DNA from: Enterobacteria phage SfV | Length of the DNA stretch: 37,074 nucleotides | Sequence record: NC_003444 | Reading direction: 5' to 3' (one strand) | In this document: positions 5,580 through 37,074 of the stretch, in pieces | Position numbering within the stretch: the first letter of the stretch is position 1 | How the letters are laid out: each line of letters begins with the position of its first letter | Notes under the pieces: model-generated | Databases searched by the model: none | Seen by the model: only the letters and a program-made list of their open reading frames with translations | What the model was told of the DNA's origin: nothing | Program-made: the position numbers and the translations under genes

Positions 5580-5903
5580 ATGCTGTTAAAAATGGAAGAG
5601 ATTAAGCTTCAGCTCCGTCTGGATGATGATTTCTCTGATGAAGATGAGTTGCTTGAACTGCTTGGTAAGGCCGCTCAGAGTCGAACGGAAAACTTCCTTA
5701 ACCGTAAGTTGTATGCAACCGCAGATGACAGGCCTGCGGATGATCCTGATGGGCTTGTGATATCTGATGATGTGAAGCTGGCACTTCTGCTACTTGTCAG
5801 CCATTTCTACGAAAACCGCTCAACGGTTACAGACGTTGAGAAAATGGAGTTGCCAATGAGTTTTAACTGGTTGGTTGCTCCTTATCGCCTTATACCACTA
5901 TGA
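5580..5903 (+). CDS. head-tail connector protein (gp6-like)
   Basis: ORF 5535..5903; ATG 5580 preceded by AGGAGG (5571-5576); size and position. Confidence 0.7.
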   Translation: MLLKMEEIKLQLRLDDDFSDEDELLELLGKAAQSRTENFLNRKLYATADDRPADDPDGLVISDDVKLALLLLVSHFYENRSTVTDVEKMELPMSFNWLVAPYRLIPL

Positions 5904-6310
5904 AAATTCGTCAGGCACAGACCAGCGCAACCTACATTCTGCCGGACCCCGGCGAACTGAATAAACGCGTCCTGATCCGCCTGCGGGTGGATATGCCCGC
6001 GGATAACTTTGGCGTGGAGCCTCAATACCCGGTTACGTTCCGGACATGGGCGAAGGTTATCCAGACCAGTGCCACCACCTGGCAGGAAACCGCGCAGACC
6101 GGGGACGCCATCACCCATTACATCACCATTCGTTACCGCCGGGGGATCACCACTGATTATGAGGTGGTCTGCGGTGACAGTGTGTACCGGGTGAAACGTC
6201 AGCGCGATCTGAACGGGGCGCGGCGTTTTCTGCTGCTGGAGTGTACGGAGCTGGGCGAATGTAGGCAGAGTCACGGAGGCAACAATGACGACTTCCTTTT
6301 TGCACGTTGA
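5900..6310 (+). CDS. head closure / head-tail joining protein
   Basis: 136-aa ORF, ATGA overlap with upstream gene; position in head-tail junction module. Confidence 0.6.
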   Translation: MKIRQAQTSATYILPDPGELNKRVLIRLRVDMPADNFGVEPQYPVTFRTWAKVIQTSATTWQETAQTGDAITHYITIRYRRGITTDYEVVCGDSVYRVKRQRDLNGARRFLLLECTELGECRQSHGGNNDDFLFAR

Positions 6311-6791
6311 TTTTCAGCAGCCCGCGGAGATGCGCTTTAACCGCGCCCGTGTCCGGCGGGCGTTTGTCACGATTGGTCAGCGTCATATGCGTGATGCCCG
6401 TCGGCTGGTGATGCGCCATGCGCGGTCGGCACCGGGTGAAAACCCCGGTTATCAGACCGGACGCCTGGCTCGTTCGATTGGTTACATGGTACCCAGAGCC
6501 AGTAAACATCGCCCCGGTTTTATGGCACGTATAGCCCCTAACCAGCGTAATGGTGAGGGAAACCGCCGCATCACCGGTGATTTTTATCCGGCTTTTTTGT
6601 TCTATGGCGTCCGGGGAGGAGCAAAACGTCGTCGTAGTCATCATCGTGGTGCATCCGGTGGCAGCGGCTGGCGGCTGGCTCCACGTAATAACTTTATGGT
6701 GGAAACGCTTGAAAAGAACCGCAGCTGGACACGCTATTTTCTGGCGCGGGAATTACGTAAATCACTGAAGCCGGAGCGACGACGCAGATGA
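6285..6791 (+). CDS. tail-component / neck protein (HK97 gp10-like)
   Basis: 168-aa ORF with GGAGG 6 nt upstream of ATG 6285; Arg-rich C-terminus; position. Confidence 0.55.
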   Translation: MTTSFLHVDFQQPAEMRFNRARVRRAFVTIGQRHMRDARRLVMRHARSAPGENPGYQTGRLARSIGYMVPRASKHRPGFMARIAPNQRNGEGNRRITGDFYPAFLFYGVRGGAKRRRSHHRGASGGSGWRLAPRNNFMVETLEKNRSWTRYFLARELRKSLKPERRRR

Positions 6792-7348
6792 AACTGACGC
6801 CTGTTATTGCTGCGCTGCGTGCCCGCTGCCCGTATTTTGAAAACCGGGTGGCAGGCGCGGCACAGTTCAAAAATCTGCCGGAGGTCGGAAAGCTGAGACT
6901 CCCGGCGGCGTATGTGGTACCGGGTGATGACTCTCCGGGAGAAAACAAAAGCCAGACCGACTACTGGCAGGAGCTGAAAGAGGGCTTCTCCGTGGTTGTC
7001 ATACTGAGTAACGGGCGTGATGAGCGCGGTCAGTTTGCTTCGTATGATGTGGTGGACGATGTCCGGCAGATGCTCTTTAAGGCCCTGCTGGGCTGGAACC
7101 CGGAAGCGTGCGGTAACCCGATTACCTATGACGGCGGCACGCTGCTGGATCTGAATCGTCATGAGCTGATTTATCAGTTCGATTTTTCGGTCATCAGCGA
7201 GCTGACCGAAGACGATACCCGCCAGCAGGATGAGCTGAACAGTCTGGATGAACTGCGAACGCTGGCGATTGATGTTGATTATCTCGATCCCGGTAACGGG
7301 CCTGACGGCGATATCGAACATCACACCGAAATAACCCTTCCTTCCTGA
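6788..7348 (+). CDS. tail completion / tail terminator protein (Mu-like)
   Basis: 186-aa ORF, ATGA-coupled, immediately upstream of the sheath module. Confidence 0.55.
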   Translation: MKLTPVIAALRARCPYFENRVAGAAQFKNLPEVGKLRLPAAYVVPGDDSPGENKSQTDYWQELKEGFSVVVILSNGRDERGQFASYDVVDDVRQMLFKALLGWNPEACGNPITYDGGTLLDLNRHELIYQFDFSVISELTEDDTRQQDELNSLDELRTLAIDVDYLDPGNGPDGDIEHHTEITLPS

Positions 7349-7356
7349 GAATCTTC

Positions 7357-7527
7357 ATGTTTGTGAAACCTGTTAAAGGGCGGTCAGTGCCTGACCCTGC
7401 CCGCGGTGACCTTTTGCCCGCCGAAGGGCGAAATGTTGACGAGAACAACTACTGGCTGCGCCGTGAAGCAGCGGGTGATATCCGGCGCGTTAATAAAAAG
7501 GTGAACACCGATGACGATAAGCTTTAA
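7357..7527 (+). CDS. small conserved protein preceding tail sheath (DUF2635-like)
   Basis: 56-codon ORF MFVKPVKGRSVPDPARGDLLPAEGRNVDENNYWLRREAAGDIRRVNKKVNTDDDKL; overlaps sheath start by 17 nt; not in the ORF track (<60 aa). Confidence 0.5.
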   Translation: MFVKPVKGRSVPDPARGDLLPAEGRNVDENNYWLRREAAGDIRRVNKKVNTDDDKL

Positions 7528-9007
7528 CACCATTCCGTCGAATACGCTGGTTCCGCTGTTTTATGCGGAAATGGATAACCAGGCGGCGAATACTGCACAG
7601 GACAGCGGGGCATCGTTGCTGATTGGTCACGCCAATAACGGTGCAGAGATTGTTGCCAACAGTCTGGTGTTGATGCCGTCGGCAGACTATGCACGCCAGA
7701 TTTGTGGTGCGGGAAGTCAGCTGGCGCGTATGGTCGAGGCTTATCGCCAGACCGACCCGTTTGGTGAGCTGTATGTGATTGCCGTTCCGGAAGCCACAGG
7801 CGCGGCGGCAACGGTTACGCTGACGGTGACCGGGGAAGCAACCGAAAGCGGCACGGTGAATGTCTATGTGGGACGTACCCGCGTGCAGGCTCCGGTGACC
7901 AACGGCGATAACGTCACGACGATTGCCAGCAGTATCCAGGATGCCATCAATGCCGTTCCGACTCTGCCGTTTACAGCTTCATCTTCGGCTGGTGTTGTCA
8001 CGCTGACCGCGCGTCATAAGGGGCTTTGCGGGAATGAAATTCCTGTCAGCCTCAATTACTACGGCTTCGGTGGGGGCGAAGTGCTGCCAGCGGGCGTACA
8101 GATTGCCGTGGCGACGGGGACCGCCGGAACGGGCGCTCCGGTTCTCACCGGCGCGGTGGCTGCAATGGCGGATGAGCCGTTTGATTATATCGGTCTGCCG
8201 TTCAACGACACGGCCTCCGTTAACACGCTGGTGACCGAGATGAACGATACCAGCGGTCGCTGGAGCTATGCGCGTCAGCTGTATGGTCATGTGTATACGG
8301 CAAAGACCGGCACACTGTCAGAACTGGTGAACGCAGGTGACCAGTTTAACCAGCAGCACATCACCCTGGCGGGGTACGAAAAAGAGACCCAGACGCCTGC
8401 CGACGAGCTGGCGGCAAGCCGTACCGCCCGTGCAGCGGTGTTTATCCGCAACGATCCGGCACGTCCCACGCAGACCGGTGAGCTGGTGGGTATGCTGCCT
8501 GCGCCGAAGGGGAAACGGTTCACGATGACCGAGCAGCAGACCCTGCTGTCTCATGGCGTGGCAACGGCGTATGTCGAAAGCGGGGTGCTGCGCATTCAGC
8601 GTGATGTCACCACGTACAGGAAAAATGCTTACGGGGTTGCGGATAACAGCTACCTCGACAGCGAGACGCTGCATACCAGTGCGTATGTACTGCGCAAACT
8701 GAAATCCGTCATTACCAGTAAGTACGGGCGTCACAAGCTTGCCAGCGACGGTACCCGCTTTGGTCCCGGTCAGGCGATTGTCACCCCGGCGGTAATCAAA
8801 GGGGAACTGCTGGCAACCTACCGTCAGCTTGAGCGTGCGGGGATCGTGGAAAACTACGAACTGTTTAAGCAGTACCTGGTTGTGGAGCGTGATGCCAGCG
8901 TTCCGAACCGCCTGAACACGCTGTTCCCGCCTGACTATGTTAACCAGTTGCGTGTTTTTGCCGTGGTTAACCAGTTCCGTCTTCAGTATTCAGAGGAGTC
9001 TGCATAA
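7511..9007 (+). CDS. contractile tail sheath protein (Mu gpL-like)
   Basis: 498 aa; N-terminus MTISFNTIPSNTLVPLFYAEMDN typical of Mu-type sheath proteins; followed by tube gene. Confidence 0.85.
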   Translation: MTISFNTIPSNTLVPLFYAEMDNQAANTAQDSGASLLIGHANNGAEIVANSLVLMPSADYARQICGAGSQLARMVEAYRQTDPFGELYVIAVPEATGAAATVTLTVTGEATESGTVNVYVGRTRVQAPVTNGDNVTTIASSIQDAINAVPTLPFTASSSAGVVTLTARHKGLCGNEIPVSLNYYGFGGGEVLPAGVQIAVATGTAGTGAPVLTGAVAAMADEPFDYIGLPFNDTASVNTLVTEMNDTSGRWSYARQLYGHVYTAKTGTLSELVNAGDQFNQQHITLAGYEKETQTPADELAASRTARAAVFIRNDPARPTQTGELVGMLPAPKGKRFTMTEQQTLLSHGVATAYVESGVLRIQRDVTTYRKNAYGVADNSYLDSETLHTSAYVLRKLKSVITSKYGRHKLASDGTRFGPGQAIVTPAVIKGELLATYRQLERAGIVENYELFKQYLVVERDASVPNRLNTLFPPDYVNQLRVFAVVNQFRLQYSEESA

Positions 9008-9363
9008 TGGCCCGTATCGGGGGAACCTGTTATTTCAAAATTGACGGTCAGCAGCTATCGCTGACCGGCGGCATTGAGGTGCCCATGAACAGGACGGTCA
9101 ATGATGACATCATCGGCCTGGACGGTTCAGTGGACCGCAAGGAAACTCACCGTGCGCCTTATGTCAAAGGGACCTTCAAGGTGCCGAAGAATTTTCCGGT
9201 GAGCAAAATCACCTCGTCTGATGAGATGACCATCACTGCCGAGCTGGCGAACGGTCAGGTCTATGTATTGTCGTCAGCCTGGCTGCACGGCGAAGCGAAC
9301 CATAATGCCGAAGAAGGTACGGTTGATCTTGAGTTCCACGGTGAAGAAGGGGATTACCAGTAA
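9007..9363 (+). CDS. tail tube protein (Mu gpM-like)
   Basis: 118 aa, start overlaps sheath stop (TAATG); position. Confidence 0.8.
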   Translation: MARIGGTCYFKIDGQQLSLTGGIEVPMNRTVNDDIIGLDGSVDRKETHRAPYVKGTFKVPKNFPVSKITSSDEMTITAELANGQVYVLSSAWLHGEANHNAEEGTVDLEFHGEEGDYQ

Positions 9364-9632
9364 TGAAAGAGCTTGAGTTAAAGAAACCGATTACTGCTCA
9401 TGGCGAGACACTCTCCGTACTGGAGTTTGATGAACCCAGCGGGAAGGATGTCCGCGAGCTGGGGTATCCCTACCAGATGAATCAGGATGAGTCAGTCAGA
9501 CTTCTGGCGCATGTGGTGTCGAAATACATTGTGCGGCTGGCGAAAGTGCCGCAAAGCTCTGTCGACCAGATGTCTCCGGCAGACCTGAATGCAGCGGCGT
9601 GGCTTGTGGCTGGTTTTTTCCTCCAGGCCTGA
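9363..9632 (+). CDS. tail assembly chaperone (short form)
   Basis: 89-aa ORF between tube and tape-measure genes; contains slippery site near its 3' end. Confidence 0.7.
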   Translation: MKELELKKPITAHGETLSVLEFDEPSGKDVRELGYPYQMNQDESVRLLAHVVSKYIVRLAKVPQSSVDQMSPADLNAAAWLVAGFFLQA

Positions 9633-9781
9633 CGGCTGAATACCTCACTGATCGCTTCTTTGACTGCGCCAGCTACTGGCGCATTAATCCTTTCGAATTG
9701 CTGAATATGCCGATCAGTGAAATTCCCTTACTGGTCAGTCAGGCAAACAGGATAGAGCAGGAGAAACGCACACATGGCTGA
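9363..9781 (+). CDS. tail assembly chaperone, -1 frameshift fusion product (slip at T_TTT_TTC 9614-9620)
   Basis: Heptamer T TTT TTC in the 0 frame at 9614-9620; the -1 frame continues open through ORF 9599..9781, which ends inside the tape-measure start region. Confidence 0.5.
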
Positions 9782-11609
9782 ATTTGAGCTTAAGGCGTTG
9801 ATCACCGGTGTCGACAGGCTTTCTCCCGCGCTGTCGAAAATGCAAAAGAAAATCCGGGGATTTAAACGCCAGGCGGAAGAAGCGTCACAGGGTGGGCTGG
9901 CGCTTGGTGGCGGACTGGCAGCGGGGCTGACGCTTTCCCTGAAATCTTATGCCGATCAGGAAAACGCCGCCACCGGGCTGAAAGTCGCCATGATGGATGC
10001 GAACGGCGAGGTTGGAAAGAGCTTTCAGGACATCAATAAACTGGCTATTGGCCTGGGTAACCAGCTACCCGGTACAACGGCTGATTTCCAGAACATGATG
10101 CAGATGCTGGTGCGTCAGGGGATCCCGGCAGAAAACATTCTGGGTGGTGTGGGTAAAGCGACAGCTTATCTTGCGGTACAACTGAAAAAAACACCGGAAG
10201 CGGCTGCCGAGTTTGCCGCAAAGATGCAGGATGCTACCGGAACGGCGTCAGAAGACATGATGGGGCTGTTCGACACTATCCAGAAGGCGTTTTATCTGGG
10301 CGTTGACGATACCAACATGTTGTCCTTCTTCACTAAAACCAGTTCTGTTCTGAAGATGGTGAACAAGGACGGTCTTCAGGCTGCACAGAGCCTTGCCCCC
10401 ATCAGCGTCATGATGGATCAGATGGGGATGAACGGGGAGTCGGCAGGTAATGCCCTGCGAAAAGTTATCCAGTCCGGATTAAGTGTTAAGAAAATCAGGG
10501 ACGTCAATAAAGTCATGGCCCGCCAGAAACTCGGAGTACAGCTCGATTTTACTGACGGCAAAGGAAGTTTTGGCGGTCTTGATAACATGTTCAGGCAACT
10601 GGCAAAGCTGCGAAAACTGACCGACGTTAAGCGAACCGGTGTACTTAAGGCAATATTTGGTGATGATGCCGAAACCCTTCAGGTGGTCAATGCGCTGATC
10701 GATAAAGGAAAGGATGGCTACGATCAGATCCAGCAGAAGATGAATAAACAGGCCAGCCTGAATAAACGTGTTCAGGCACAGCTTGGTACGCTGTCCAACC
10801 TGTGGGAGGCAATGACAGGGACCGCAACTAACGGCCTTGCGGCTATTGGCGGCGCATTTTCTGGTGACGCTAAAAATATCACACAATGGCTGGGGGAGTT
10901 GGGGGAGAAATTCACGAAGTTTGCGGATGAAAATCCCCGGGTTATTCGCGGCGTCGTCGGGCTTGCTGCCGGTCTTGCGATTCTGAAACTGGGATTGATG
11001 GGCGTTGGCGGTGCCATCAGTATTGTCAGCAGGATCATGTCGATGACGCCGATTGGCATGATTGCGACGGCGATAGCCCTGGCTGCGGGATTAATTATCA
11101 CTAACTGGGATGTTGTCGGACCTTATTTTAAGAAACTCTGGGAAACCATTGGTCCTTATTTTGAGGCTGGCTGGGAACTCCTTAAGAAAGTTTTTGCCTG
11201 GTCGCCGCTGGGGATGGTGATCAATAATTGGGGGCCGGTTGTTAAGTGGTTTCAGGATATGTGGGACAAGCTGAAGCCAATTATTGAGTGGTTTACCGAC
11301 AGTTCCGGTGACACGGTCGATGCCATTAACTCTGCGCAGTGGGGCGCGGGTGCTTATGATGCTTATGGGACGGGAATACCGGCGCGGGGATACACACCTT
11401 ATCCGGCGGTAGATCCGGCTCAGTCAAACAATGCCTCCGGTGCCACAGGCCCGAATCCCTTCATGATTAACAAAGCTTCTGCGCCAAAAGTTGATGGTGA
11501 GATCAAGGTATCTTTTGTGAATTCGCCTCCGGGTATGCGGGTTATGGAAACGCGATCCAGCGGTTTTGATGTCAGCCATGATGTTGGCTATACGCGCTTT
11601 GGCAGGTAA
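9774..11609 (+). CDS. tail tape measure protein
   Basis: 611 aa; Gly/Ala-rich hydrophobic segments; follows the chaperone pair. Confidence 0.85.
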   Translation: MAEFELKALITGVDRLSPALSKMQKKIRGFKRQAEEASQGGLALGGGLAAGLTLSLKSYADQENAATGLKVAMMDANGEVGKSFQDINKLAIGLGNQLPGTTADFQNMMQMLVRQGIPAENILGGVGKATAYLAVQLKKTPEAAAEFAAKMQDATGTASEDMMGLFDTIQKAFYLGVDDTNMLSFFTKTSSVLKMVNKDGLQAAQSLAPISVMMDQMGMNGESAGNALRKVIQSGLSVKKIRDVNKVMARQKLGVQLDFTDGKGSFGGLDNMFRQLAKLRKLTDVKRTGVLKAIFGDDAETLQVVNALIDKGKDGYDQIQQKMNKQASLNKRVQAQLGTLSNLWEAMTGTATNGLAAIGGAFSGDAKNITQWLGELGEKFTKFADENPRVIRGVVGLAAGLAILKLGLMGVGGAISIVSRIMSMTPIGMIATAIALAAGLIITNWDVVGPYFKKLWETIGPYFEAGWELLKKVFAWSPLGMVINNWGPVVKWFQDMWDKLKPIIEWFTDSSGDTVDAINSAQWGAGAYDAYGTGIPARGYTPYPAVDPAQSNNASGATGPNPFMINKASAPKVDGEIKVSFVNSPPGMRVMETRSSGFDVSHDVGYTRFGR

Positions 11610-11669
11610 TGAAAAATTAGTTTGTTAATTAGTCCCACTCCGGTGGGATTTTTTATGCACGGAGTTTAT

Positions 11670-12998
11670 ATGACGTGGAAAGACAGGCTTCAGGACGCGT
11701 CATTTCGCGGTGTACCGTTTAAGGTCGAAGAAGAAAGTGCGGGAACAGGTCGCCGTGTGGAAACGCACGAATACCCGAACCGCGACAAACCCTATACCGA
11801 AGATCTGGGAAAAGTCACTTTCCGCCCGTCCATCACGGCTTATGTGGTGGGAGATGACTGCTTTGACCAGCGCGATCGCCTGATTGACGCGCTGAATAAA
11901 CCCGGTCCCGGCACGCTTGTCCATCCGACATACGGTGAGCTGAAAGTCTGTGTTGACGGGGAAGTTCGGGTCAGCACATCGAAAAGTGAAGGACGTATTG
12001 TCCGCTTTGACCTGAAGTTTGTCGAAGCAGGAGAGCTCTCTTACCCCACATCAGGTGCGGCGACGGCGCAGACGCTGATGTCATCCTGTTCTGCACTGGA
12101 TGACTGCATCAGTGACAGCTTCAGCGGTTTCAGTATCGATGGCGTGGCGGATTTTGTGCAGAACGACGTCGTTGGTAATGTCAGCACAATGCTTGGGTAT
12201 GTTTCTGATGCGATGAAAGTGGTGGATTCTGCCGTATCGGATGCGGCCAGGCTGTTGCAGGGGGATATCTCGGTACTTCTGCCGCCACCATCGTCAGGCA
12301 AAAATTTCGTTGAGCAGGTGCAGAAAATGTGGCGTACCGGGAAACGCCTTTATGGTAACGCCAGCGACCTGGTCACCATGATCAAAACGCTTTCCGGTGT
12401 CAGCCTCGGCAGCGATCTGCAACCGCGCGGCGTCTGGAAAACGGACAGTAAAACCACCGCCACGGCGACGCAGCAGCGTAACGTGGTTGCCAGCACCCTT
12501 CGTACGACCGCAATCAGCGAAGCGGCGTATGCCGTCACCCGATTGCCTGCGCCAACAACTTCCGCGGTGATGCAGAATTCCGCAGTGGGGCAGGCAACAA
12601 CACCTGCGCAGAGCACTGGCTGGCCTTCCGTCACGCATCCGGCACTGAACAATGCACCGGCGGTGAAAAACACGGTTGACCTGCCAACGTGGGAAGAACT
12701 GACTGACATTCGCGACACACTGAATACGGCAATTGATAAGGAGTTGTCCCGTACAACCAGTGATGCGCTGTTTCTGGCGCTGCGCCGGGTGAAAGCAGAT
12801 CTGAATGCGGATATCAACACGCGCCTTGAACAGTCTGCACGGATCATTCAGCGCACACCGGATGAGGTTTTACCCGCGCTGGTGCTGGCGGCGACCTGGT
12901 TTGATAACGCGGCGCGTGACGCGGACATTATCCGGCGTAATGCCATTACGCATCCCGGCTTTGTGCCGGTGATCCCTCTGAAGGTGCCAGTGCAATGA
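11670..12998 (+). CDS. DNA circularisation protein (Mu gpN-like)
   Basis: ORF 11622..12998; ATG 11670 after GGAG; N-terminus MTWKDRLQDASFRGVPF characteristic of the Mu N family. Confidence 0.8.
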   Translation: MTWKDRLQDASFRGVPFKVEEESAGTGRRVETHEYPNRDKPYTEDLGKVTFRPSITAYVVGDDCFDQRDRLIDALNKPGPGTLVHPTYGELKVCVDGEVRVSTSKSEGRIVRFDLKFVEAGELSYPTSGAATAQTLMSSCSALDDCISDSFSGFSIDGVADFVQNDVVGNVSTMLGYVSDAMKVVDSAVSDAARLLQGDISVLLPPPSSGKNFVEQVQKMWRTGKRLYGNASDLVTMIKTLSGVSLGSDLQPRGVWKTDSKTTATATQQRNVVASTLRTTAISEAAYAVTRLPAPTTSAVMQNSAVGQATTPAQSTGWPSVTHPALNNAPAVKNTVDLPTWEELTDIRDTLNTAIDKELSRTTSDALFLALRRVKADLNADINTRLEQSARIIQRTPDEVLPALVLAATWFDNAARDADIIRRNAITHPGFVPVIPLKVPVQ

Positions 12999-14074
12999 AC
13001 GACAATGTCACGCTACGGGTAAATGGCCGGGAGTGGAATGGCTGGACATCGGTGCGCATCGGTGCCGGTATTGAACGACTGGCGCGGGATTTCAGTGTGG
13101 ATATCACCCGCCAGTGGCCGGGAGATGAGGGTATTACCACGCTTCAGCCGCGCATTAAAAACGGTTCAAAAGTGGAAGTGCTGATTGGTGATGAGCTGGT
13201 GATCACCGGCTGGGTGGAGGCGACGCCCGTTCGTTACGATGCCCGTTCGGTCAGCACCGGTATTGCCGGACGTAGTCTGACGGCTGACCTGATTGACTGT
13301 GCAGCCGAACCGACACAGTTTAACGGACGATCGCTGGTACAGATTGCGCAGGCGCTTGCTGCGCCTTTCGGCATTGAGGTGGTGAACAACGGTGCGCCGT
13401 CGGGTGTTATTCCTGACGTCCAGCCCGATCACGGTGAAACGGTGATTGAGGTAATCAACAAAATACTCGGTCAGCAGCAGGCACTGGCTTACGACGACCC
13501 ACACGGCAGGCTGGTGATTGGTGGTATTGGCTCAACGCGGGCACATACTGCGCTGGTACTCGGGGAAAACATCCTTTCCTGCGATACGGAGAAGAGTATC
13601 CGGGAGCGTTTTTCTGTTTACCAGGTGGCGGGGCAGCGTGCCGGAAACGACGATGATTTCGGTGAGGCCACCACCACCGCGCTGCGGGCCCGCACAGAGG
13701 ACGCATTTATTGCCCGTTACCGTCCGATGTATATCAGGCAGACAGGGCAGGCTACGGGGGCAGGCTGTATTGCGCGTGCTGACTTTGAAGCCCGACAACG
13801 GGCGGCGCGGACGGATGAAACCACCTATGTGGTGCAGGGCTGGCGACAGGGTAACGGTACGCTGTGGCAGCCCAACCAGCGGGTGATTGTCTTTGATCCG
13901 GTCTGTGGTTTCGACAATACCGAACTGCTTGTTTCGGAAGTCACGTTTACTCAGGACCAGAACGGCACCCTGACGGAAATCCGTGTCGGCCCGCCTGATG
14001 CTTATCTGCCTGAACCCGAAGCCCCCGGCGCGCGGAAAAAGAAAAAAGCCAGAGTACAGGAGGACCCGTTCTGA
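12995..14074 (+). CDS. baseplate hub protein (Mu gpP / gp44-like)
   Basis: 359 aa; ATGA coupling; position in Mu-type baseplate module. Confidence 0.8.
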   Translation: MNDNVTLRVNGREWNGWTSVRIGAGIERLARDFSVDITRQWPGDEGITTLQPRIKNGSKVEVLIGDELVITGWVEATPVRYDARSVSTGIAGRSLTADLIDCAAEPTQFNGRSLVQIAQALAAPFGIEVVNNGAPSGVIPDVQPDHGETVIEVINKILGQQQALAYDDPHGRLVIGGIGSTRAHTALVLGENILSCDTEKSIRERFSVYQVAGQRAGNDDDFGEATTTALRARTEDAFIARYRPMYIRQTGQATGAGCIARADFEARQRAARTDETTYVVQGWRQGNGTLWQPNQRVIVFDPVCGFDNTELLVSEVTFTQDQNGTLTEIRVGPPDAYLPEPEAPGARKKKKARVQEDPF

Positions 14075-14622
14075 TGAGGACGATTGAAGCCATGCAGCGA
14101 CAACTCCTCGGCCTGATTGGGCGGGCCGTGGTGAAAAGTATCAGTGCCGCCACGAAATGTCAGACCGTGGATGTGTCCCTGATTGCCGGTGAACCCAAAG
14201 CCGGGGTTGAACATCTTGAACCCTACGGTTTTACCGCAAGGGCAAACAGCGGTGCGGAAGCGGTGGTGTTGTTTCCGGATGGCGACCGTTCTCATGCGGT
14301 GGTTGTTACGGTGTCGGACCGGCGCTACCGCCTGAAAGGGCTGCAGACGGGTGAGGTGGCTGTCTATGACGATCAGGGGCAGTCCGTGACGCTGACCCGG
14401 GAGGGGATCGTGGTGGACGGTGCAGGTAAAACGATCACGTTTCGCAATGCACCTGAAGCACGTTTTGAAATGGACCTGGAAGTGACAGGACAGGTGAAAG
14501 ACCTGTGCGACTCCGGCGGCACCACCATGTCAGCGATGCGGCTTGCCTATAACGGCCATCGTCACAGAGAGAACGGTCAGGGCAGTAACACCGATAAACC
14601 TGATAAAGCGATGGAGGCATGA
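14074..14622 (+). CDS. baseplate assembly protein V / spike (Mu gp45-like)
   Basis: 182 aa; position and size. Confidence 0.8.
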   Translation: MRTIEAMQRQLLGLIGRAVVKSISAATKCQTVDVSLIAGEPKAGVEHLEPYGFTARANSGAEAVVLFPDGDRSHAVVVTVSDRRYRLKGLQTGEVAVYDDQGQSVTLTREGIVVDGAGKTITFRNAPEARFEMDLEVTGQVKDLCDSGGTTMSAMRLAYNGHRHRENGQGSNTDKPDKAMEA

Positions 14623-15047
14623 TGGAACTGTGGCTGACGGTGAACGGTAAACGCACCTGCGCCAGCGCACCGCTGGATCCGCTGACCCGTGCCGTGGTGA
14701 TTTCCCTGTTCACCTGGCGGCGGGCTGAACCTGATGACAATGCCGACGTCCCGATGGGATGGTGGGGGGATACCTGGCCTGCGGTACAGAATGACCGTTA
14801 CGGCTCCCGGCTGTGGCTGCTTCAGCGCAGCAAACTGACCAATCAGCTGGTGCAGACGGTAAGGGGGTATATCCGCGAATGCCTGCAATGGATGATTGAT
14901 GACGGCGTGGTGTCCCGTATTGATCTGGATATCCGCCGCACCGGGATTAATGAGCTGGGGAACAGTATCACCCTCTGGCGTCGTGACGGACCGGTAATGA
15001 TTTCTTTTGATGATCTGTGGAGTGCGATAACGCATGGCGGACAGTGA
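14619..15047 (+). CDS. baseplate protein (Mu gp46 / gp25-like)
   Basis: 142 aa; ATGA coupling; position. Confidence 0.75.
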   Translation: MMELWLTVNGKRTCASAPLDPLTRAVVISLFTWRRAEPDDNADVPMGWWGDTWPAVQNDRYGSRLWLLQRSKLTNQLVQTVRGYIRECLQWMIDDGVVSRIDLDIRRTGINELGNSITLWRRDGPVMISFDDLWSAITHGGQ

Positions 15048-16092
15048 ATTTCAGCGCCCGACGCTGGCAGAAAATATCAGTATGCTCCGTAACGATTTAT
15101 TCGCCAGGCTGGACGTCAGCGACACGCTCCGGCGCATGGATGAAGACGTGCGGGCAAAGGTGTATGCGGCGGCGCTGCATACGGTTTACGGTTACATCGA
15201 TTATCTGGCAATGAACATGCTGCCTGACCTGTGCGATGAGTCCTGGCTGGCGCGACATGCTGCGATGAAACGGTGTCCGCGCAAGGGGGCCACGGCTGCC
15301 AGCGGGTATATGCGCTGGGAAGGTGTCAGCGATGGCCTGAAGGTGACCGCCGGGAGTGTTATTCAGCGCGATGACCTGGTGCAGTACACGGCAACTGCCG
15401 ATGCAATCAGCTCCGGTGGTGTCCTGCGCGTGCCGATCGCCTGCTCAAGTGCAGGCGCGGTCGGTAACGCTGACGACGGTACGTCATTAATCCTGGTCAC
15501 GCCGGTGAATGGTCTGCCGTCTTCCGGCGTGGCAGATACACTGACAGGTGGATTTGATACTGAAGAGCTGGAAACGTGGCGCGCCCGCGTCATTGAGCGG
15601 TATTACTGGACGCCTCAGGGCGGGGCTGACGGGGACTATGTCGTCTGGGCTAAAGAAGTTCCCGGCATTACCCGCGCATGGACATACCGACACTGGATGG
15701 GAACGGGAACTGTCGGTGTGATGATTGCCAGCAGTGACCTGATTAATCCCATTCCGGAAGAATCAACGGAAACGGCGGCAAGACAACACATTGAGCCACT
15801 GGCCCCGGTGGCAGGCTCTGATTTGTATGTATTCAGGCCGGTGGCGCATAAAGTGGATTTTCATATCCGCGTGACGCCGGACACACCGGAAATACGGGCT
15901 GCCATCACCGCGGAGTTGCGTTCGTTCCTGCTGCGTGATGGTTATCCGCAGGGAGAACTGAAGGTATCGCGTATCAGTGAGGCGATTTCCGGTGCGAACG
16001 GGGAATACAGCCATCAGTTGCTTGCCCCGGCGGACAATATCTCCATTGCAAAAAATGAACTGGCGGTTCTGGGGACGATTTCATGGACGTGA
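15034..16092 (+). CDS. baseplate J-like protein (Mu gp47-like)
   Basis: 352 aa; position. Confidence 0.85.
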
Positions 16093-16667
16093 CAAACGAT
16101 GATTACATCCGCCTGTTATCGGCACTGTTGCCGCCCGGTCCTGCATGGTCAGCCAGCGATCCGGCGATTGCCGGTGCGGCACCTTCATTAACCCGCGTTC
16201 ATCAGCGTGCGGATGCCCTGATGCGGGAGCTGGATCCGCGCACCACCACTGAACTGATAAACCGCTGGGAGCGTCTGTGCGGTCTGCCGGATGAATGTAT
16301 TCCGGCGGGAACGCAGACCCTTCGCCAGCGTCAGCAACGGCTGGATGCGAAGGTTAACCTGGCGGGCGGCATCAATGAGGATTTTTACCTTGCACAGCTT
16401 GCTGCCCTGGGCAGACCAGACGCCACCATCACGCGATACGACAAAAGCACGTTCACCTGCTCATCGGCCTGTACTGACGCGGTGAATGCGCCGGAATGGC
16501 GGTATTACTGGCAGGTCAACATGCCAGCTGCCACCAACACCACCTGGATGACATGTGGCGATCCCTGTGATTCCGCGCTGCGTATCTGGGGCGACACCGT
16601 TGTCGAGTGTGTGCTTAACAAACTCTGCCCGTCGCATACCTACGTAATTTTTAAATATCCGGAGTAA
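16083..16667 (+). CDS. tail protein (Mu gp48-like, DUF2313)
   Basis: 194 aa, Cys-containing; position between baseplate J and tail fibre. Confidence 0.7.
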
Positions 16668-16670
16668 TCC

Positions 16671-17321
16671 ATGCATCGTATAGACACGAAAACCGCGCAG
16701 AAGGATAAGTTCGGCGCGGGTAAGAACGGTTTTACCCGTGGTAACCCCCAGACAGGCACGCCTGCCACCGATCTGGATGATGACTACTTTGACATGTTGC
16801 AGGAAGAACTCTGCAGCGTGGTGGAGGCATCCGGGGCCAGTCTGGAGAAGGCGCAGCACGACCAGCTGCTTACCGCGCTTCGTGCGCTGCTGTTAAGCCG
16901 CAAGAATCCGTTTGGCGATATCAAATCGGATGGCACGGTGAAAACGGCTCTCGAAAACCTTGGTTTGGGAGAAGCGGCAAAACGGGATATAGGGACAGGG
17001 GCAAATCAGATACCTGATATGAGTTTATTCGCGTCAATTAATACCGTAACGGCTGCTGCGCAAAAATTTCCGTCCGGATTAGTTTTACAGTGCGGTCAGT
17101 TGAATGGTGCCCCGAATGTATCTTCAACATACGGGATGAAGTTCCCGATGACGTTCTCAAGAGTCATTGCTGTCGTAGTTACATTAAACGTTACTGGCGC
17201 GGCAGGGCAGCCGACTGTATCGGCGACAAATGTCCAGAACACTGGATTTGATATTACTGTGTCGCCTGGTTCAGGATACGGCGCATCTGCTGATGCGTAT
17301 TACATTGCAATGGGATATTAA
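16671..17321 (+). CDS. tail fibre protein (short)
   Basis: 216 aa; N-terminus [22 protein letters not shown] resembles conserved tail-fibre N-terminal domains; followed by assembly chaperone. Confidence 0.75.
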
Positions 17322-17325
17322 CGAA

Positions 17326-17733
17326 ATGTCATATTTTTATTCTGCATCGACAAACGGATTTTATTCGACTGAATTTCACGGCACCAATATTCCTGATGAT
17401 GCAGTGGAAATCTCGGAATCAGAATGGGAAACATTGATTAATTCACAGGGTGTAACAAAAATGATTACCTGTGGTGAGAACGGTCATCCTGTCATTGTTG
17501 ACCGTCCTTCTCCAACACCAGAACGATTAGCCTTAATAAATGATGAAAAGAAATCTGCACTGATAGCAGAGGCAACGAATGTAATAGCTCCGCTTCAGGA
17601 TGCGGTTGATTTAGGTATGGCAACAGATGATGAAACGAAACTGTTACTGGCATGGGAAAAATATCGGGTGCTATTGATGCGTGTTGATATAAAAAATACA
17701 GAGTGGCCGAAAAAACCAGAGGGAAATAAATAA
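17326..17733 (+). CDS. tail fibre assembly protein (Tfa-like)
   Basis: ATG 17326 (MSYFYSASTNGFY...), 135 aa; typical Tfa N-terminus; position. Confidence 0.75.
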   Translation: MSYFYSASTNGFYSTEFHGTNIPDDAVEISESEWETLINSQGVTKMITCGENGHPVIVDRPSPTPERLALINDEKKSALIAEATNVIAPLQDAVDLGMATDDETKLLLAWEKYRVLLMRVDIKNTEWPKKPEGNK

Positions 17734-17784
17734 TGGGGATTTCGTTATCGGATGAAGAAAGAGACCGTTAATTATAACTGCAGA

Positions 17785-17857: not shown

Positions 17858-19111
17858 TTAAGGCTGTTTTTTTATTAATGTCATCGTCCATCCTGCAGGG
17901 TTGAACTTGAAAGAATACGATTCTCCTGGTGCTAAACTTTCAAATTTTTTAACTTGCTCTTTCCACCCGTAATCTGGGAGTGGGGTAAGATTGAAAAAAT
18001 ATAAACATGAGATTAACGATGTTGTATATAATATCCATGGTAGGAATTTAAAGTCCAACTGGGAAATATGGTTTAAGAAGTAAACCAATACAGAGTACCA
18101 TATAATTGTTGGTATGACAGAATATCTTCCCCCGCCATGAATTAATAATGGCCATTGCTCACTTGTAGAAGAAAGCATTGGTTTTGCTAGTGAAAACGTT
18201 AATGTTAGTATTGCGAAAACTATTGCCGAGCGCATGGGGTAATTGGAAACAATAAATGTAAAAATAGTGATGGAAAGACAAATCATTGTAATTGCAATGC
18301 AAATTGAATCATGATTCCATAAAGGTGGCAAAAAGTCACCATTAGCCCATAAACCCAGAAAAACCTTTGTTGTTAATATTTTGCAAAGTGTTGCGAAATT
18401 AGCTCCAAGAACCATATCAACTCTGGTCTCAGAGGATGTCATGATAATAGAAATAAATTGAATCAAACAAATAGCAATGAAAACGTATTCGTGAGTGGTG
18501 ATTTTTTTTGTAGATAAGCGTTTTTGTATAAGTATATTTATCCCTACCATTGGAGCCATGAACACTATAAATGGGCCACTTAGTCCACATATGATTATCG
18601 CTATATAATCGTGTGCTTTTTGATAATTATTTGTAGGCTTTGGAGCTAACATAACAAGAAGTAAATATAGTGATAAATACCAATGATCATTAGTAACATT
18701 GGCGTGCACTTCTGATACTTCCGGCATTGTTATAATAAACAAAGCAGTAAATATTCTTGGTGTTATGTTTACGTAACTAAATCTTCCAGAGAGTATGAAA
18801 GATACAAGCAATGCCCTAACAATAATTGCGGAGATGTTAAAAATTAAAGGGGCATACATTAAATTAAAATTTAATGATATGGAGGCAATAAGTTTTGATA
18901 TGGTTTGATAATATCCATTTTGAGGGAATATCATTGATGTGAATATCCCATTATTGTATGCCATAGCATACCATACATGAGCATCTTCTGCCCAAAACTG
19001 CGGTGCTCTGATTATATCAGGACGGCGCAAATACATCAAAATAACTGCAATGAAAAATACACCAATTAAGAAAAATAGTTTTTTTACATATGATGTTTTA
19101 AGGCTTTTCAT
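17858..19111 (-). CDS. gtrC: serotype-specific O-antigen glucosyltransferase GtrC (type-specific Gtr; matches my memory of 417-aa GtrV)
   Basis: 417-aa polytopic membrane protein directly downstream of gtrB; third gene of a gtrA-gtrB-gtr(type) cassette. Confidence 0.75.
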
Positions 19112-20031
19112 TTTTGTTTCTCATTTTTGATGATGTATTTTGGGCGATGTTTGCTTTCAATATAGATTCTGCCTATATATTCACCGAGAACACCAATCCC
19201 GATCAGTTGCACTCCACCCAAGAAAAGTATTGATACAAGCAGGGAGGGATACCCGCGTACTGGGTTACCAAAGACAAGGGTGTCTATAATCATCCATGCA
19301 CCATATAAAAATGAAATGCTTGCAACAAACAAACCTATATAAGTCCATACGCGAAGAGGAAAGGTTGAAAAACTTGTGATACCTTCCAGTGCCAGATTCC
19401 ATAATTTCCAGCCATTAAATTTTGAGATGCCAGCAACGCGCTCTGCGCGTACATATTCAACGACATCTGTCTGACCACCCACCCAGCTCAGTATGCCTTT
19501 CATGAAAAGATTGCGCTCAGGCAACAGTTTAATGTTCTCCACAACCTCACGAGACATGAGTCGAAAATCTCCGACATTTTCCTCGATCTTTGGGGTGCTT
19601 ATTTTGTTGTGTAACTTATAGAACCACTCAGCTGTCTTACGTTTCAGTCGTCCATCAGTTGAGCGGTCTGAACGTTTAGCAAGCACCATGTCAGCACCTG
19701 CCTGCCACTTTTCAATAAGATGAGGGATGACCTCAATAGGATCTTGCAGGTCGACATCAATAGGAATTACAGCATCGCCGCTTGCATGGTCTAACCCTGC
19801 AAATAAGGCTGGTTCTTTACCAAAGTTGCGTGTAAATGACAGCGGAACAACTAGTGGGTCTGAAACAGCCAGCGCGTTAATAATTGACTCTGTGGCATCT
19901 TTACTTCCGTCATTTATGAATACAATTTCTACTTCATATGGCTTCAACTCTTGGAATTCACGTACCGTTTTATAGAAAACAGGTATCGCTTCTTCTTCAT
20001 TGAAGACAGGAACGACAAGAGATATTTTCAT
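19108..20031 (-). CDS. gtrB: bactoprenol glucosyltransferase GtrB (GT2 family)
   Basis: 307 aa; N-terminal GT2 signature ([15 protein letters not shown]...INDGSKD) plus C-terminal transmembrane helices. Confidence 0.9.
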
Positions 20032-20390
20032 TTCGCATCCCTAAAGACAATGAACTTTGAATAGACGAAACCGCACACCAGACTGATGGCGGAGAAGGTG
20101 ATAAGAGTGACTATTGGAGGAAGTGAGCATTTATCAGCTGCCCAACCAACAATCACACTCAATATTCCCATAAATCCCACGTATAACATGTAGCGCATCG
20201 CTGTAGTCGATGCTTTGAATGTGAATCTTGCATTCGCGAAGAAGCTAAAGCTCACAGCCACTACGAAACCTGTGAAGTTTGCCAGAGCCTGACTGGTATG
20301 TGCGGCATAGATACATACACCAAAAACCACCCAGTGTATAAGTGTGTTCAGCACACCTATAGATGTGTACTTTACAAATAACTTTAACAT
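20028..20390 (-). CDS. gtrA: GtrA flippase-like membrane protein
   Basis: 120 aa, four predicted TM segments, ATGA-coupled upstream of gtrB. Confidence 0.85.
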
Positions 20391-20591
20391 TTATTTAATC
20401 AATGAGCTCTGAAAGGCATGAAGTCTATCATCCAAGTCTCAATTGGTCGATACTTGCTATGTCTGATGAGACAAAACTGAGACACATAAGGCCTCACAAT
20501 GGCTTGCAAGGCTTTACATGTTTTGATGTGGTGGGACGTGTGAGCCCAGTGTTGATGGGATAATCCTTTGAATTACAAGCGGATTCTTATA

Positions 20592-20637
20592 ATTCGTAAT
20601 GCGAAGGTCGTAGGTTCGACTCCTATTATCGGCACCA
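20592..20637 (+). other. attP core: 3' 46 nt of a tRNA-Thr(CGU) gene (thrW-like), not an intact tRNA
   Basis: Sequence attcgtaatgcgaaggtcgtaggttcgactcctattatcggcacca = anticodon loop (CGT), variable/T arm (GGTTCGACTCC) and acceptor 3' end with CCA; upstream sequence diverges from tRNA; lies immediately next to the integrase gene. Confidence 0.8.
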
Positions 20638-20651
20638 TTTAAATCAATAAG

Positions 20652-21815
20652 TTACACATCATTAGTACCTTCCTTATTTTTTGACTGGGACGAATTTGGG
20701 ACCGATGGGTTCAGGATCGAGTCTATTTGCCGTGCGTGTTCGGTAAGGTGATTAGGTGCAAGGTGAGCATATCGACGAACCATTTCGATAGACTCCCAGC
20801 CTCCCATTTCCTGTAACACTGACAACGGGACTCCGGCTTGACCCAGCCAACTTGCCCAGGTGTGTCTCAAGTCGTGAAATCTGAAATCATCAATACCAGC
20901 CCGTCTCAGCGCCGCTTTCCAGGCTGTGTTTGCGTCATACCGCATCTCCCTTACTGTTGGCGCTTTCGTTCCGTCTGGTTTGGTACAGCTTTCCTTGTAC
21001 ACAAATACCCAACGGTGATGATTCCCGATTTGTTTTTTCAAAACGCGACATGCAGTATCATTCAGCGCAACGCCAATTGCGCGGTTTGATTTACTCTCTT
21101 CCGGGTTTATCCATGCCACCCGGCGCTGCATGTCTATTTGTTGCCATTCAAGGTTGATGATGTTCGAGCGTCTTAAGCCTGTTGCCAGTGCAAATTCAAC
21201 AACAGACTTTAATGGCTCCGGACATTCATCAATCAGCCTTTGTGCTTCATGGGGCTCCAGCCAGCGGATCCGTTTATTCTTTGGTTGAGGCACTTTAATA
21301 ATTGGTGCCTTATCCAGCATTTTCCATTCACGCTCTGCGGCTCTTAGTAGGGCCTTTATAAATGAAAGATGCGTAGCCTTCGTTGCAACGGACGCTGGTT
21401 TTGGCGTGTATTCTGGAACAGGTTTCCCTTTTTTCCTGCATGCTTCTGCCCTGAGTCTCCAGTTTTCCTCATGACGCCGGTTCGTCATTTTCTGGATTGC
21501 TGAATAAATTTTTGATTCAGTAATGTCTCTTAGTTGCATTCCTGCGAAATGTTGAAGCCAGAATCCGATCCGGCTTTTGTCATCGTCCAGTGATTTTTGA
21601 TGTGCTTTCTCTTCAAGCCACCTGACACACGCTTCCTCGAACGTTATATCAGGTATTTCACCAAGTTTGCTGACCCGCCATGCTTCAGCCTTTAGCTTGT
21701 CATGGAGTTCTGTCGCCTGCCTTTTGTCCTTTGTTCCAAGAGACTGTTTAAATCTTTTACCGTTCGGCAATGTGAAACTGGCGTACCATATTTCACCTCT
21801 GCGGAAGAGTGACAT
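20652..21815 (-). CDS. int: tyrosine integrase (site-specific recombinase)
   Basis: 387 aa; C-terminal catalytic region [10 protein letters not shown]...RRYAHL with the tyrosine; SD AGAGGAAA upstream; adjacent to attP. Confidence 0.9.
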
Positions 21816-22042
21816 TTTCTTTCCTCTGTTATGCCATCACCCGCGCTCACCTGGACAGTATGCAGCGGAGACTGAAGAGCCGCAATGCAGGCTTGTCGTG
21901 TTGTGAGGTAAGGAGATTTACTCTTAGTGGGATCTTTGCGTGTTGCCTGAAGACGCCCTGTGCGTATCCAGTTAATGGCAGTCGGTCTGGATATCTTGAG
22001 AAAATCACAGGCCTCATCGAGTGTGAGGCTGTATGGCTCCAT
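21692..22042 (-). CDS. xis: excisionase (AlpA/Xis-type HTH)
   Basis: ORF 21692..22126; ATG at 22042 ([31 protein letters not shown]); overlaps int start by ~120 nt. Confidence 0.65.
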
Positions 22043-22347
22043 TATTTCACCTCTTGCTGTGACATTGTTGAAAAATGGATACCAGCTCGTTGCTGCCAGA
22101 CGATCCAACCGAGAGTCATATCCCATGCCATGTATTCGTTATCGCCGTTTTTTGCTCTCCGACGATCTACTAAGTCACCGAAACGCTTTTCCATGAATAA
22201 TTCATAAGCTTCGCGTTCATCTGGTTCTACTTCCAGAGATAGGAGTGCGATTTCATAAGCACGGCGCTCAATATCGTCTCGCACGTCAAGGCTGCTGATA
22301 CGCTCTTTAATTTCTTTAATCAGTTCTTTGTCGGTAAAAGTGGTCAT
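22042..22347 (-). CDS. hypothetical acidic protein (YfdT-like by memory)
   Basis: 101-aa ORF, stop overlaps xis start (TAATG). Confidence 0.5.
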   Translation of the reverse strand: MTTFTDKELIKEIKERISSLDVRDDIERRAYEIALLSLEVEPDEREAYELFMEKRFGDLVDRRRAKNGDNEYMAWDMTLGWIVWQQRAGIHFSTMSQQEVK

Positions 22348-36665: not shown

Positions 36666-37016
36666 ATGCCCCCTCGAACTCCAAAAGCCTGCCGCGTTCG
36701 CGGCTGCCGTAATACCACGACAGACCCGTCAGGCTACTGCGAAAGCCACAAAAGCGAAGGCTGGAAGCAATACAAACCTGGACAATCCCGTCATCAGCGC
36801 GGTTATGGTTCTAAGTGGGATGTTATCCGTGTGCGTGTGCTGCAACGTGACAAAGGCCTGTGTCAGTTATGTCTGCGTGCTGGTGTGGCGCGTGAAGCGA
36901 AAACCGTTGACCACATCATCCCTAAAGCACATGGCGGCACTGATGCCGACAGTAATCTGCAGAGTCTGTGCTGGCCGTGCCATAAGGCGAAGACGGCCCG
37001 TGAACGGCTTAAGTGA
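36666..37016 (+). CDS. HNH endonuclease
   Basis: 116 aa; Cys-rich N-terminus and HNH core (DHIIPKAHGG...N...CWPCH); AGGAA upstream of ATG. Confidence 0.85.
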   Translation: MPPRTPKACRVRGCRNTTTDPSGYCESHKSEGWKQYKPGQSRHQRGYGSKWDVIRVRVLQRDKGLCQLCLRAGVAREAKTVDHIIPKAHGGTDADSNLQSLCWPCHKAKTARERLK

Positions 37017-37074
37017 TAATAACTCTCAACTGTCTGAGGGGAGGGGCGGGTCAAATCTCTGTGACCTGACGTCT

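Follow-up and report, generated by a model that had tools for sequence, protein, structure and literature searches.

Genes at the attachment locus

The window, by which we mean the whole 37,074-nt stretch of enterobacteria phage SfV DNA analysed here (NC_003444), contains the common core of the phage attachment site attP (20592–20637, plus strand) between an O-antigen glucosylation operon and an integrase gene. The operon, gtrA-gtrB-gtrC (17858–20390, minus strand), adjoins attP as cargo. It consists of gtrA (20028–20390, minus strand; PF04138), gtrB (19108–20031, minus strand; PF00535), and the type-specific gtrC (17858–19111, minus strand), the protein of which matched a glucosyltransferase family, PHROG 19534, from end to end (1.9e-175). 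A search of a collection of 50,697 phage records, which does not include the SfV record, found no nucleotide match to gtrC, even in SfI, SfII, and SfIV, which carry different type-specific gtrC genes. The result agrees with the presence of a distinct third gtr gene in each serotype-converting phage.

On the other side of the core, int (20652–21815, minus strand) encodes a P22-type tyrosine integrase (PF00589, 1.5e-46). The protein is 89% identical to P22 Int across all 387 amino acids, and its matches in the PDB were HP1 integrase and Xer catalytic domains. The assignment of gtrA and int as the phage genes flanking the core, which an earlier reading of the sequence had proposed, is thus borne out by the Pfam domains of both proteins. 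The excisionase gene xis follows (21692–22042, minus strand; 116 amino acids; PHROG 2907, 1.1e-50; PF12728, HTH_17). The open reading frame beginning at the first ATG is longer (21692–22126), exceeding the annotated homologues by 28 codons. The PHROG 2907 alignment covers residues 29–144 of this longer frame, and the annotations of SfI and P22 give the corresponding xis a length of 351 nt. The same-strand overlap of int and xis is 124 nt (21692–21815), exactly as in P22 and SfI. A plus-strand frame of 53 codons in the gtrA-int interval (20402–20563) was rejected as spurious; it has no Pfam match and overlaps the promoter, the hairpin, and the arm sites described below.

At the left end of the window are the small and large terminase genes, and at its right end are the endolysin and HNH endonuclease genes. 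The head, tail, repressor, and lysis genes are located between these ends, and host genes are absent. With the small terminase and HNH genes at its limits and no host gene inside, the window has the configuration of the free phage, and it is the complete, cos-linearised, non-integrated 37,074-bp genome.

Identity of the core with the 3′ part of thrW

The core sequence (20592–20637) is ATTCGTAATGCGAAGGTCGTAGGTTCGACTCCTATTATCGGCACCA. Its first base is the final one in the 5′ strand of a tRNA anticodon stem, and the sequence continues across the loop to the terminal CCA. As the reference, we used the 76-nt tRNA-Thr(cgt) gene thrW of E. coli, for which the RefSeq annotation and the ARAGORN call agreed in three loci (L004, L006, and L008); thrW is positioned directly downstream of proA in three E. 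coli loci. All 46 nucleotides of the core are identical to the 3′ end of thrW, an agreement far exceeding chance. The left edge of the identity is exact, with an "a" at 20591 in the phage and a "C" in the host, and the window contains a single copy of the core. The 60 nt on the left of the core are no more similar to the 5′ half of the tRNA and its leader than shuffled sequences are (p = 0.57). These observations confirm the proposal of the sequence-only reading that the attP core is the 3′ 46 nt of tRNA-Thr(CGU). They also agree with its statement that only the 3′ part of the tRNA is present, since ARAGORN called no tRNA gene in the whole window. A search of 20300–20800 against Rfam with a permissive E-value gave only sub-threshold matches, namely tRNA-Sec (14.3 bits; gathering score, 47) and Plastid-ycf2 (16.2 bits), both of which were set aside as chance matches.

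The similarity between the phage and the host continues beyond the tRNA. Alignment with the unoccupied bacterial attachment site attB of E. coli gave an exact identity of 48 nt (20592–20639), which consists of the core and the following TT, and an extended similarity to 20655, with 61 of the 64 positions identical overall. In the stretch after CCA (20638–20655), 15 of the 18 nucleotides resemble the host B′ sequence in register (p = 0.006 against shuffled sequences). This resemblance is also present in P22, and the BLAST alignments to the E. coli junctions described below stop at 20655. An IHF consensus lies within these 18 nt both in the phage and in the attB of E. coli ATCC 8739. The shared stretch could reflect bending of attB, too, by IHF, or it could mark the extent of an ancestral capture of host DNA.

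Junctions in a lysogen and the unoccupied site

A search of E. coli genomes yielded both junctions of a related prophage at the core, and the attB as well. The part of the window from 19146 to 22042 is continuous in the phage but is split at the core in E. coli YZ22MPE54. In the BLAST comparison, 19146–20655 aligned with one end of the prophage and 20592–22042 with the other, the two alignments overlapping only at 20592–20655. From left to right, the YZ22MPE54 locus contains proA, an intact tRNA-Thr gene, int, xis, the replication genes, and the lysis genes, followed by the terminase, head, and tail genes, gtrC-gtrB-gtrA, a copy of the core, a LysR pseudogene, and paoD. The distance between the two copies of the core, which are direct repeats, is 38,186 bp. 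ARAGORN detected tRNA-Thr(cgt) at the int-side junction only, the gtr side retaining half of the tRNA. The expectation that the host tRNA is reconstituted on integration therefore holds in this lysogen, which carries a mosaic relative of SfV rather than the same phage: 50% of the window is common to the two, at 92–98% identity. Between proA-thrW and paoD, the phage modules are circularly permuted relative to the window. Together with the terminase and HNH genes at the ends of the window and the absence of host genes, this permutation upholds the earlier assignment of the window to the non-integrated configuration.

An attB of 253 nt was reconstructed from the sequences on the outer sides of the two YZ22MPE54 junctions. 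This sequence was found uninterrupted at 100% identity in E. coli ATCC 8739 and in many other genomes. Among 5,426 complete E. coli genomes, 1,579 have the unoccupied attB when at least 80% of the 253 nt is required to be covered, and 571 E. coli genomes carry the junction composed of gtrAB, the P arm, and the core.

The thrW gene is a heavily used integration site, the median number of matching places being two among the genomes that have any. Integrases unrelated to that of SfV are also found at thrW; in the locus L006, for example, a plus-strand integrase gene follows the tRNA. In E. coli ET201, an attP-like junction (L007, 4001–4281) contains the P arm, the core, and a frameshifted int. 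The whole query was covered there at 96.8% identity, and a phage tail gene and a DUF262 gene are situated on the left. The probable origin of this junction is the tandem integration of two elements at thrW.

Nature of the locus and proposed mechanism of integration

Four things were observed directly: the identity with thrW, the arrangement of the surrounding genes, the attB in its unoccupied state, and both junctions of a closely related prophage in a lysogen. On these grounds, we regard it as almost certain that the locus is the attP of a temperate phage with a P22-type integrase that targets thrW. The window is the free, cos-linearised form of this phage, which is almost certainly the Shigella flexneri phage SfV. 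In the proposed mechanism, the circularised phage DNA would recombine with the host thrW through the action of the tyrosine integrase encoded next to the core, strand exchange taking place within the 46-nt identity. Integration would join the 5′ half of the host thrW to the 3′ half borne by the phage, and the displaced 3′ half of the host gene would come to lie beside gtrA at the opposite end of the prophage. The intact thrW beside int is explained by this joining of the host 5′ half to the phage 3′ half. Assembly of Int, Xis, and IHF on the candidate arm sites distributed over approximately 20468–20703 would set the directionality of the reaction.

Two other explanations of the fragment were weighed against integration at thrW. 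It might be a decayed tRNA gene of the phage itself, a pseudo-tRNA with no role in integration, as the labels "tRNA-like fragment" or "tRNA-Ser" at the homologous spot in some P22-like phage records and the weak tRNA-Sec-like Rfam alignment over 20550–20634 might be taken to indicate. The score of the P arm aligned with the tRNA 5′ half equals the mean of shuffled sequences both in SfV (p = 0.57) and in P22 (p = 0.96), and the similarity of the 5′ side to thrW is at the chance level. Between the Sf phages and P22, conservation of the 3′ part is 100%, whereas the arms around it diverge to approximately 80% identity. Furthermore, the ends of the prophage coincide exactly with the core segment, so that the pseudo-tRNA explanation is refuted in practice and we give it hardly any weight. 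Equally negligible is the chance that the window represents an integrated prophage extracted from a bacterial assembly, in which case the half tRNA would be an attL or attR junction beside host sequence. The 18 nt after CCA, which resemble the host B′ sequence, could pass at first sight for such a flank. Beyond 20655, however, the sequence is that of int and not of the host flank with the LysR pseudogene and paoD, and on the left of 20592 it is a phage P arm common to SfI, SfII, SfIV, and P22. The core occurs once rather than twice in the window, and the small terminase and HNH genes form the window ends. Host-derived flanks, which the sequence-only reading had named as evidence against its own interpretation, are accordingly missing: neither proA with the thrW 5′ half nor the paoD-side sequence is present in the window.

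Probable position of the crossover

Tyrosine integrases exchange strands over an overlap of 6–8 bp between inverted core-type sites, and identity is generally needed by these enzymes in that overlap only. In SfV, the lysogen junctions bracket the crossover by sequence alone to 20592–20647, since the first base on the right of the core that distinguishes the phage type from the host type in the lysogen is 20648. Within this bracket, we infer the exact point by analogy with tRNA-targeting tyrosine integrases and with the biochemistry of P22: the strand-exchange overlap is most likely the 7 bp of the anticodon loop TTCGTAA (20593–20599, plus strand; anticodon CGT at 20595–20597), at the left end of the identity, which begins one base before the loop. 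The remainder of the core, approximately 39 nt, would then be conserved because it becomes part of a working tRNA in every lysogen.

It is improbable, in our estimation, that the whole 46-nt identity rather than its left end is needed as the recombination substrate. All 46 positions are invariant across all the phages and hosts compared, and this invariance is predicted by either explanation. The general requirement of tyrosine integrases for identity in the overlap argues against the longer substrate, as does the fact that the rest of the core would be conserved in any case, lysogens being selected for a tRNA that works. A review table lists a minimal attB of 27 bp for P22, together with an attP of 260 bp (PMC4111918); the former is shorter than the 46 nt of the core. 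A substrate made up of core-type sites and a 7-bp overlap near the anticodon loop appears preferable to one of 46 nt.

Candidate arm-type and IHF sites

Repeat analysis of the arms identified five candidate arm-type Int sites, all on the plus strand and all sharing the motif G(G/A)GAC, and two candidate IHF sites. In the distal P arm, two candidate GAGACA sites start at 20468 and 20479 (20468–20484), 11 bp apart, and are assigned at the level of the motif. A third candidate, GGGACG (20533–20538), is located in the proximal P arm within the block TGGGACGTGTGAGC, which does not vary between the Sf phages and P22. The remaining two, GGGACG at 20687 and GGGACC at 20698 (20687–20703), are again 11 bp apart and would belong to the P′ arm; this pair falls within int, at the 3′ end of its coding sequence. 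At the homologous positions in P22, all five same-strand repeats read GGGAC and fall in conserved blocks. Both of the distal repeats are GGGACA in P22, and so is the P′-arm pair. The hexamer TGGGAC occurs 13 times in the window, and three of these copies flank the core (Poisson p ~1e-5).

A perfect match to the IHF consensus, AATCAATAAGTTA, is found at 20642–20654 (plus strand) and is a candidate for the H′ site; the IHF pattern occurs four times in the whole window. On the minus strand, the IHF-like sequence ATTCAAAGGATTA (20561–20573), which has one mismatch to WATCAANNNNTTR, is a weak candidate for the H site. The latter is a pattern match, and its P22 homologue fits less well by eye. The order of the candidate sites across the locus would therefore be the two distal arm sites, the proximal arm site, H, the core, the rest of the tRNA, H′, and the two P′ sites. 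The Int and Xis proteins of P22 and IHF have been studied biochemically, and the lambda-like layout of the candidates would agree with the arrangement of the P22 att site.

The sequence-only reading had expected the integrase arm-binding sites between 20391 and 20591. At the level of motifs, this expectation is supported for the P arm, as three of the candidate repeats and the IHF-like site fall in that interval. It was too narrow for the arms as a whole, omitting the P′ arm, where the candidates reach approximately 20703.

A direct repeat, TTTAATCAATGAG at 20394 and TTAAATCAATAAG at 20639, was also considered as an arm pair and rejected. Its left copy occupies part of the gtrA leader, on the downstream side of the gtr start site, and has no conserved counterpart in P22, so that the repeat is probably a chance occurrence or IHF-like only.

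The predicted gtr promoter and a conserved hairpin

By homology to P22, the gtr promoter is placed at 20415–20450 (minus strand), with the −35 element TCGACC (20450 to 20445), a spacer of 17 nt, the −10 element TAGACT (20427 to 20422), and a predicted start site near 20415. The placement is consistent with the expectation in the earlier reading of a gtr promoter between 20391 and 20591. A consensus scan of 20300–20800 found no sigma-70 site at threshold, the promoter being missed because it agrees with the consensus at 8 of the 12 positions. In P22, gtr transcription has been mapped to start 25 bp upstream of the gtrA ATG and, counted from the fourth GATC site, GATC4, 33 bp downstream (PMC2909390). 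Our alignment reproduced this mapped geometry, the P22 GATC sites lying upstream of the ATG at distances of 135, 122, 71, and 58 nt.

The gtr control region of the Sf type (20391–20470, minus strand, in the window) is 87 nt shorter than that of P22, and three of the four GATC sites are absent from it, meaning that most of the 115-bp Dam/OxyR phase-variation region is missing. The GATC located 58 nt upstream of the ATG is kept in SfII, SfI, and SfIV. This last GATC, which overlaps the −35 element, reads GGTC in the window, so that the window is left without any GATC. Since the switch sites have been lost, O-antigen glucosylation may not phase-vary. We tentatively suggest that serotype conversion of the SfV type could be constitutive rather than phase-variable, a possibility to which we assign slightly less than an even chance.

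A terminator-like hairpin followed by CUCAGUUUUGUC is predicted at 20482–20521 (minus strand), with a minimum free energy of −18.9 kcal/mol (z = −3.2). Conservation of the hairpin extends to P22, SfIV, and E. coli prophages, and one of its pairs is compensatory relative to P22. A scan listed it as terminator-like, and the homologous place is annotated as "terminator" in the records of phage L and SfII. It is situated between the core and the gtr promoter, downstream of int across attP and upstream of that promoter, in a position that recalls the tI/sib region of lambda. It also lies just inside the distal arm-like repeats, and its short U-run falls between them.

Comparison with known attachment sites

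The attP core described here is correct and has already been published. The same 46-base core has been stated for SfI, SfII, SfV, SfX, and P22, and the attP, attB, attL, and attR of SfI have been verified by PCR (PMC3636060); the thrW attachment core was restated for SfIV (PMC3851460). The SfV attP itself goes back to Huan et al. (1997, Gene 195:217) and Allison et al. (2002, J Bacteriol 184:1974), as cited in PMC3636060. The length of the window, 37,074 bp, is also the published size of the SfV genome. Compared with the published SfV site, the window has the same gtr-attP-int-xis order and the same 46-nt core, and no difference was detected in these features. The published homology blocks between SfV and SfI, in SfV coordinates, are 9–2,211, 5,793–17,782, 19,146–22,042, and 36,666–37,074 (PMC3636060), and their ends match those of our BLAST alignments of the window with SfI and with the E. 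coli prophage; the assignment to SfV rests on this agreement and on the length. For phage L, a false tRNA adjoining int has been described as rebuilding thrW upon integration (bioRxiv 10.1101/2020.10.05.325894).

Among the closest relatives, SfI, SfII, and SfIV have an identical core, and their 310-nt gtrA-int interval is 97.4–99.0% identical to that of the window. In the SfI record, "attP core" is annotated on the same 46 nt, and in the records of SfII and phage L, a P22-type attP is annotated inside the gtrA-int interval. The window differs from the Sf relatives at a few points, for example at 20444 (G instead of A), the change that removes its only GATC, as well as at 20544 (C instead of G) and 20693 (G instead of A); it further differs from SfI and SfIV at 20640 (T instead of A). 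P22 and phage L, too, have an identical core and the same int-xis overlap, and the positions of the five GGGAC-type repeats and of the hairpin are conserved in them. The arms of the P22-like Salmonella phages, in contrast, are approximately 80% identical to those of the window. The two distal repeats are GAGAC in the window but GGGAC in P22, CCA is followed by T in the window but by G in P22, and the P22 gtr regulatory region, with its four GATC sites, is 87 nt longer.

The lambda attP, the paradigm for heterobivalent tyrosine integrases, resembles the SfV site in its logic of a core between two arms with Int arm repeats spaced at approximately one helical turn and IHF sites, which in SfV are candidates. 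In both phages, the xis gene is upstream of int, and int reads toward the att site. The site sequences are nevertheless unrelated, and the lambda core is a 15-bp segment between gal and bio, outside any tRNA gene. Also unlike lambda, SfV has approximately 40 nt of tRNA sequence between the presumed overlap and the candidate H′ site.

The attachment site has been in the literature since 1997–2013, and the present result is a confirmation with finer annotation. Our additions are minor ones: the 48-nt exact and 64-nt extended similarity to attB, the candidate arm and IHF sites, the placement of the promoter, and the missing phase-variation module. The use of thrW explains how the phage enters the Shigella or E. 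coli chromosome without inactivating the tRNA, and the position of attP explains why the O-antigen glucosylation genes are always found at one of the prophage's ends. Knowledge of the site helps to delimit prophages and to interpret thrW as a hot spot of integration, a site that is empty in only about 29% of the complete E. coli genomes.
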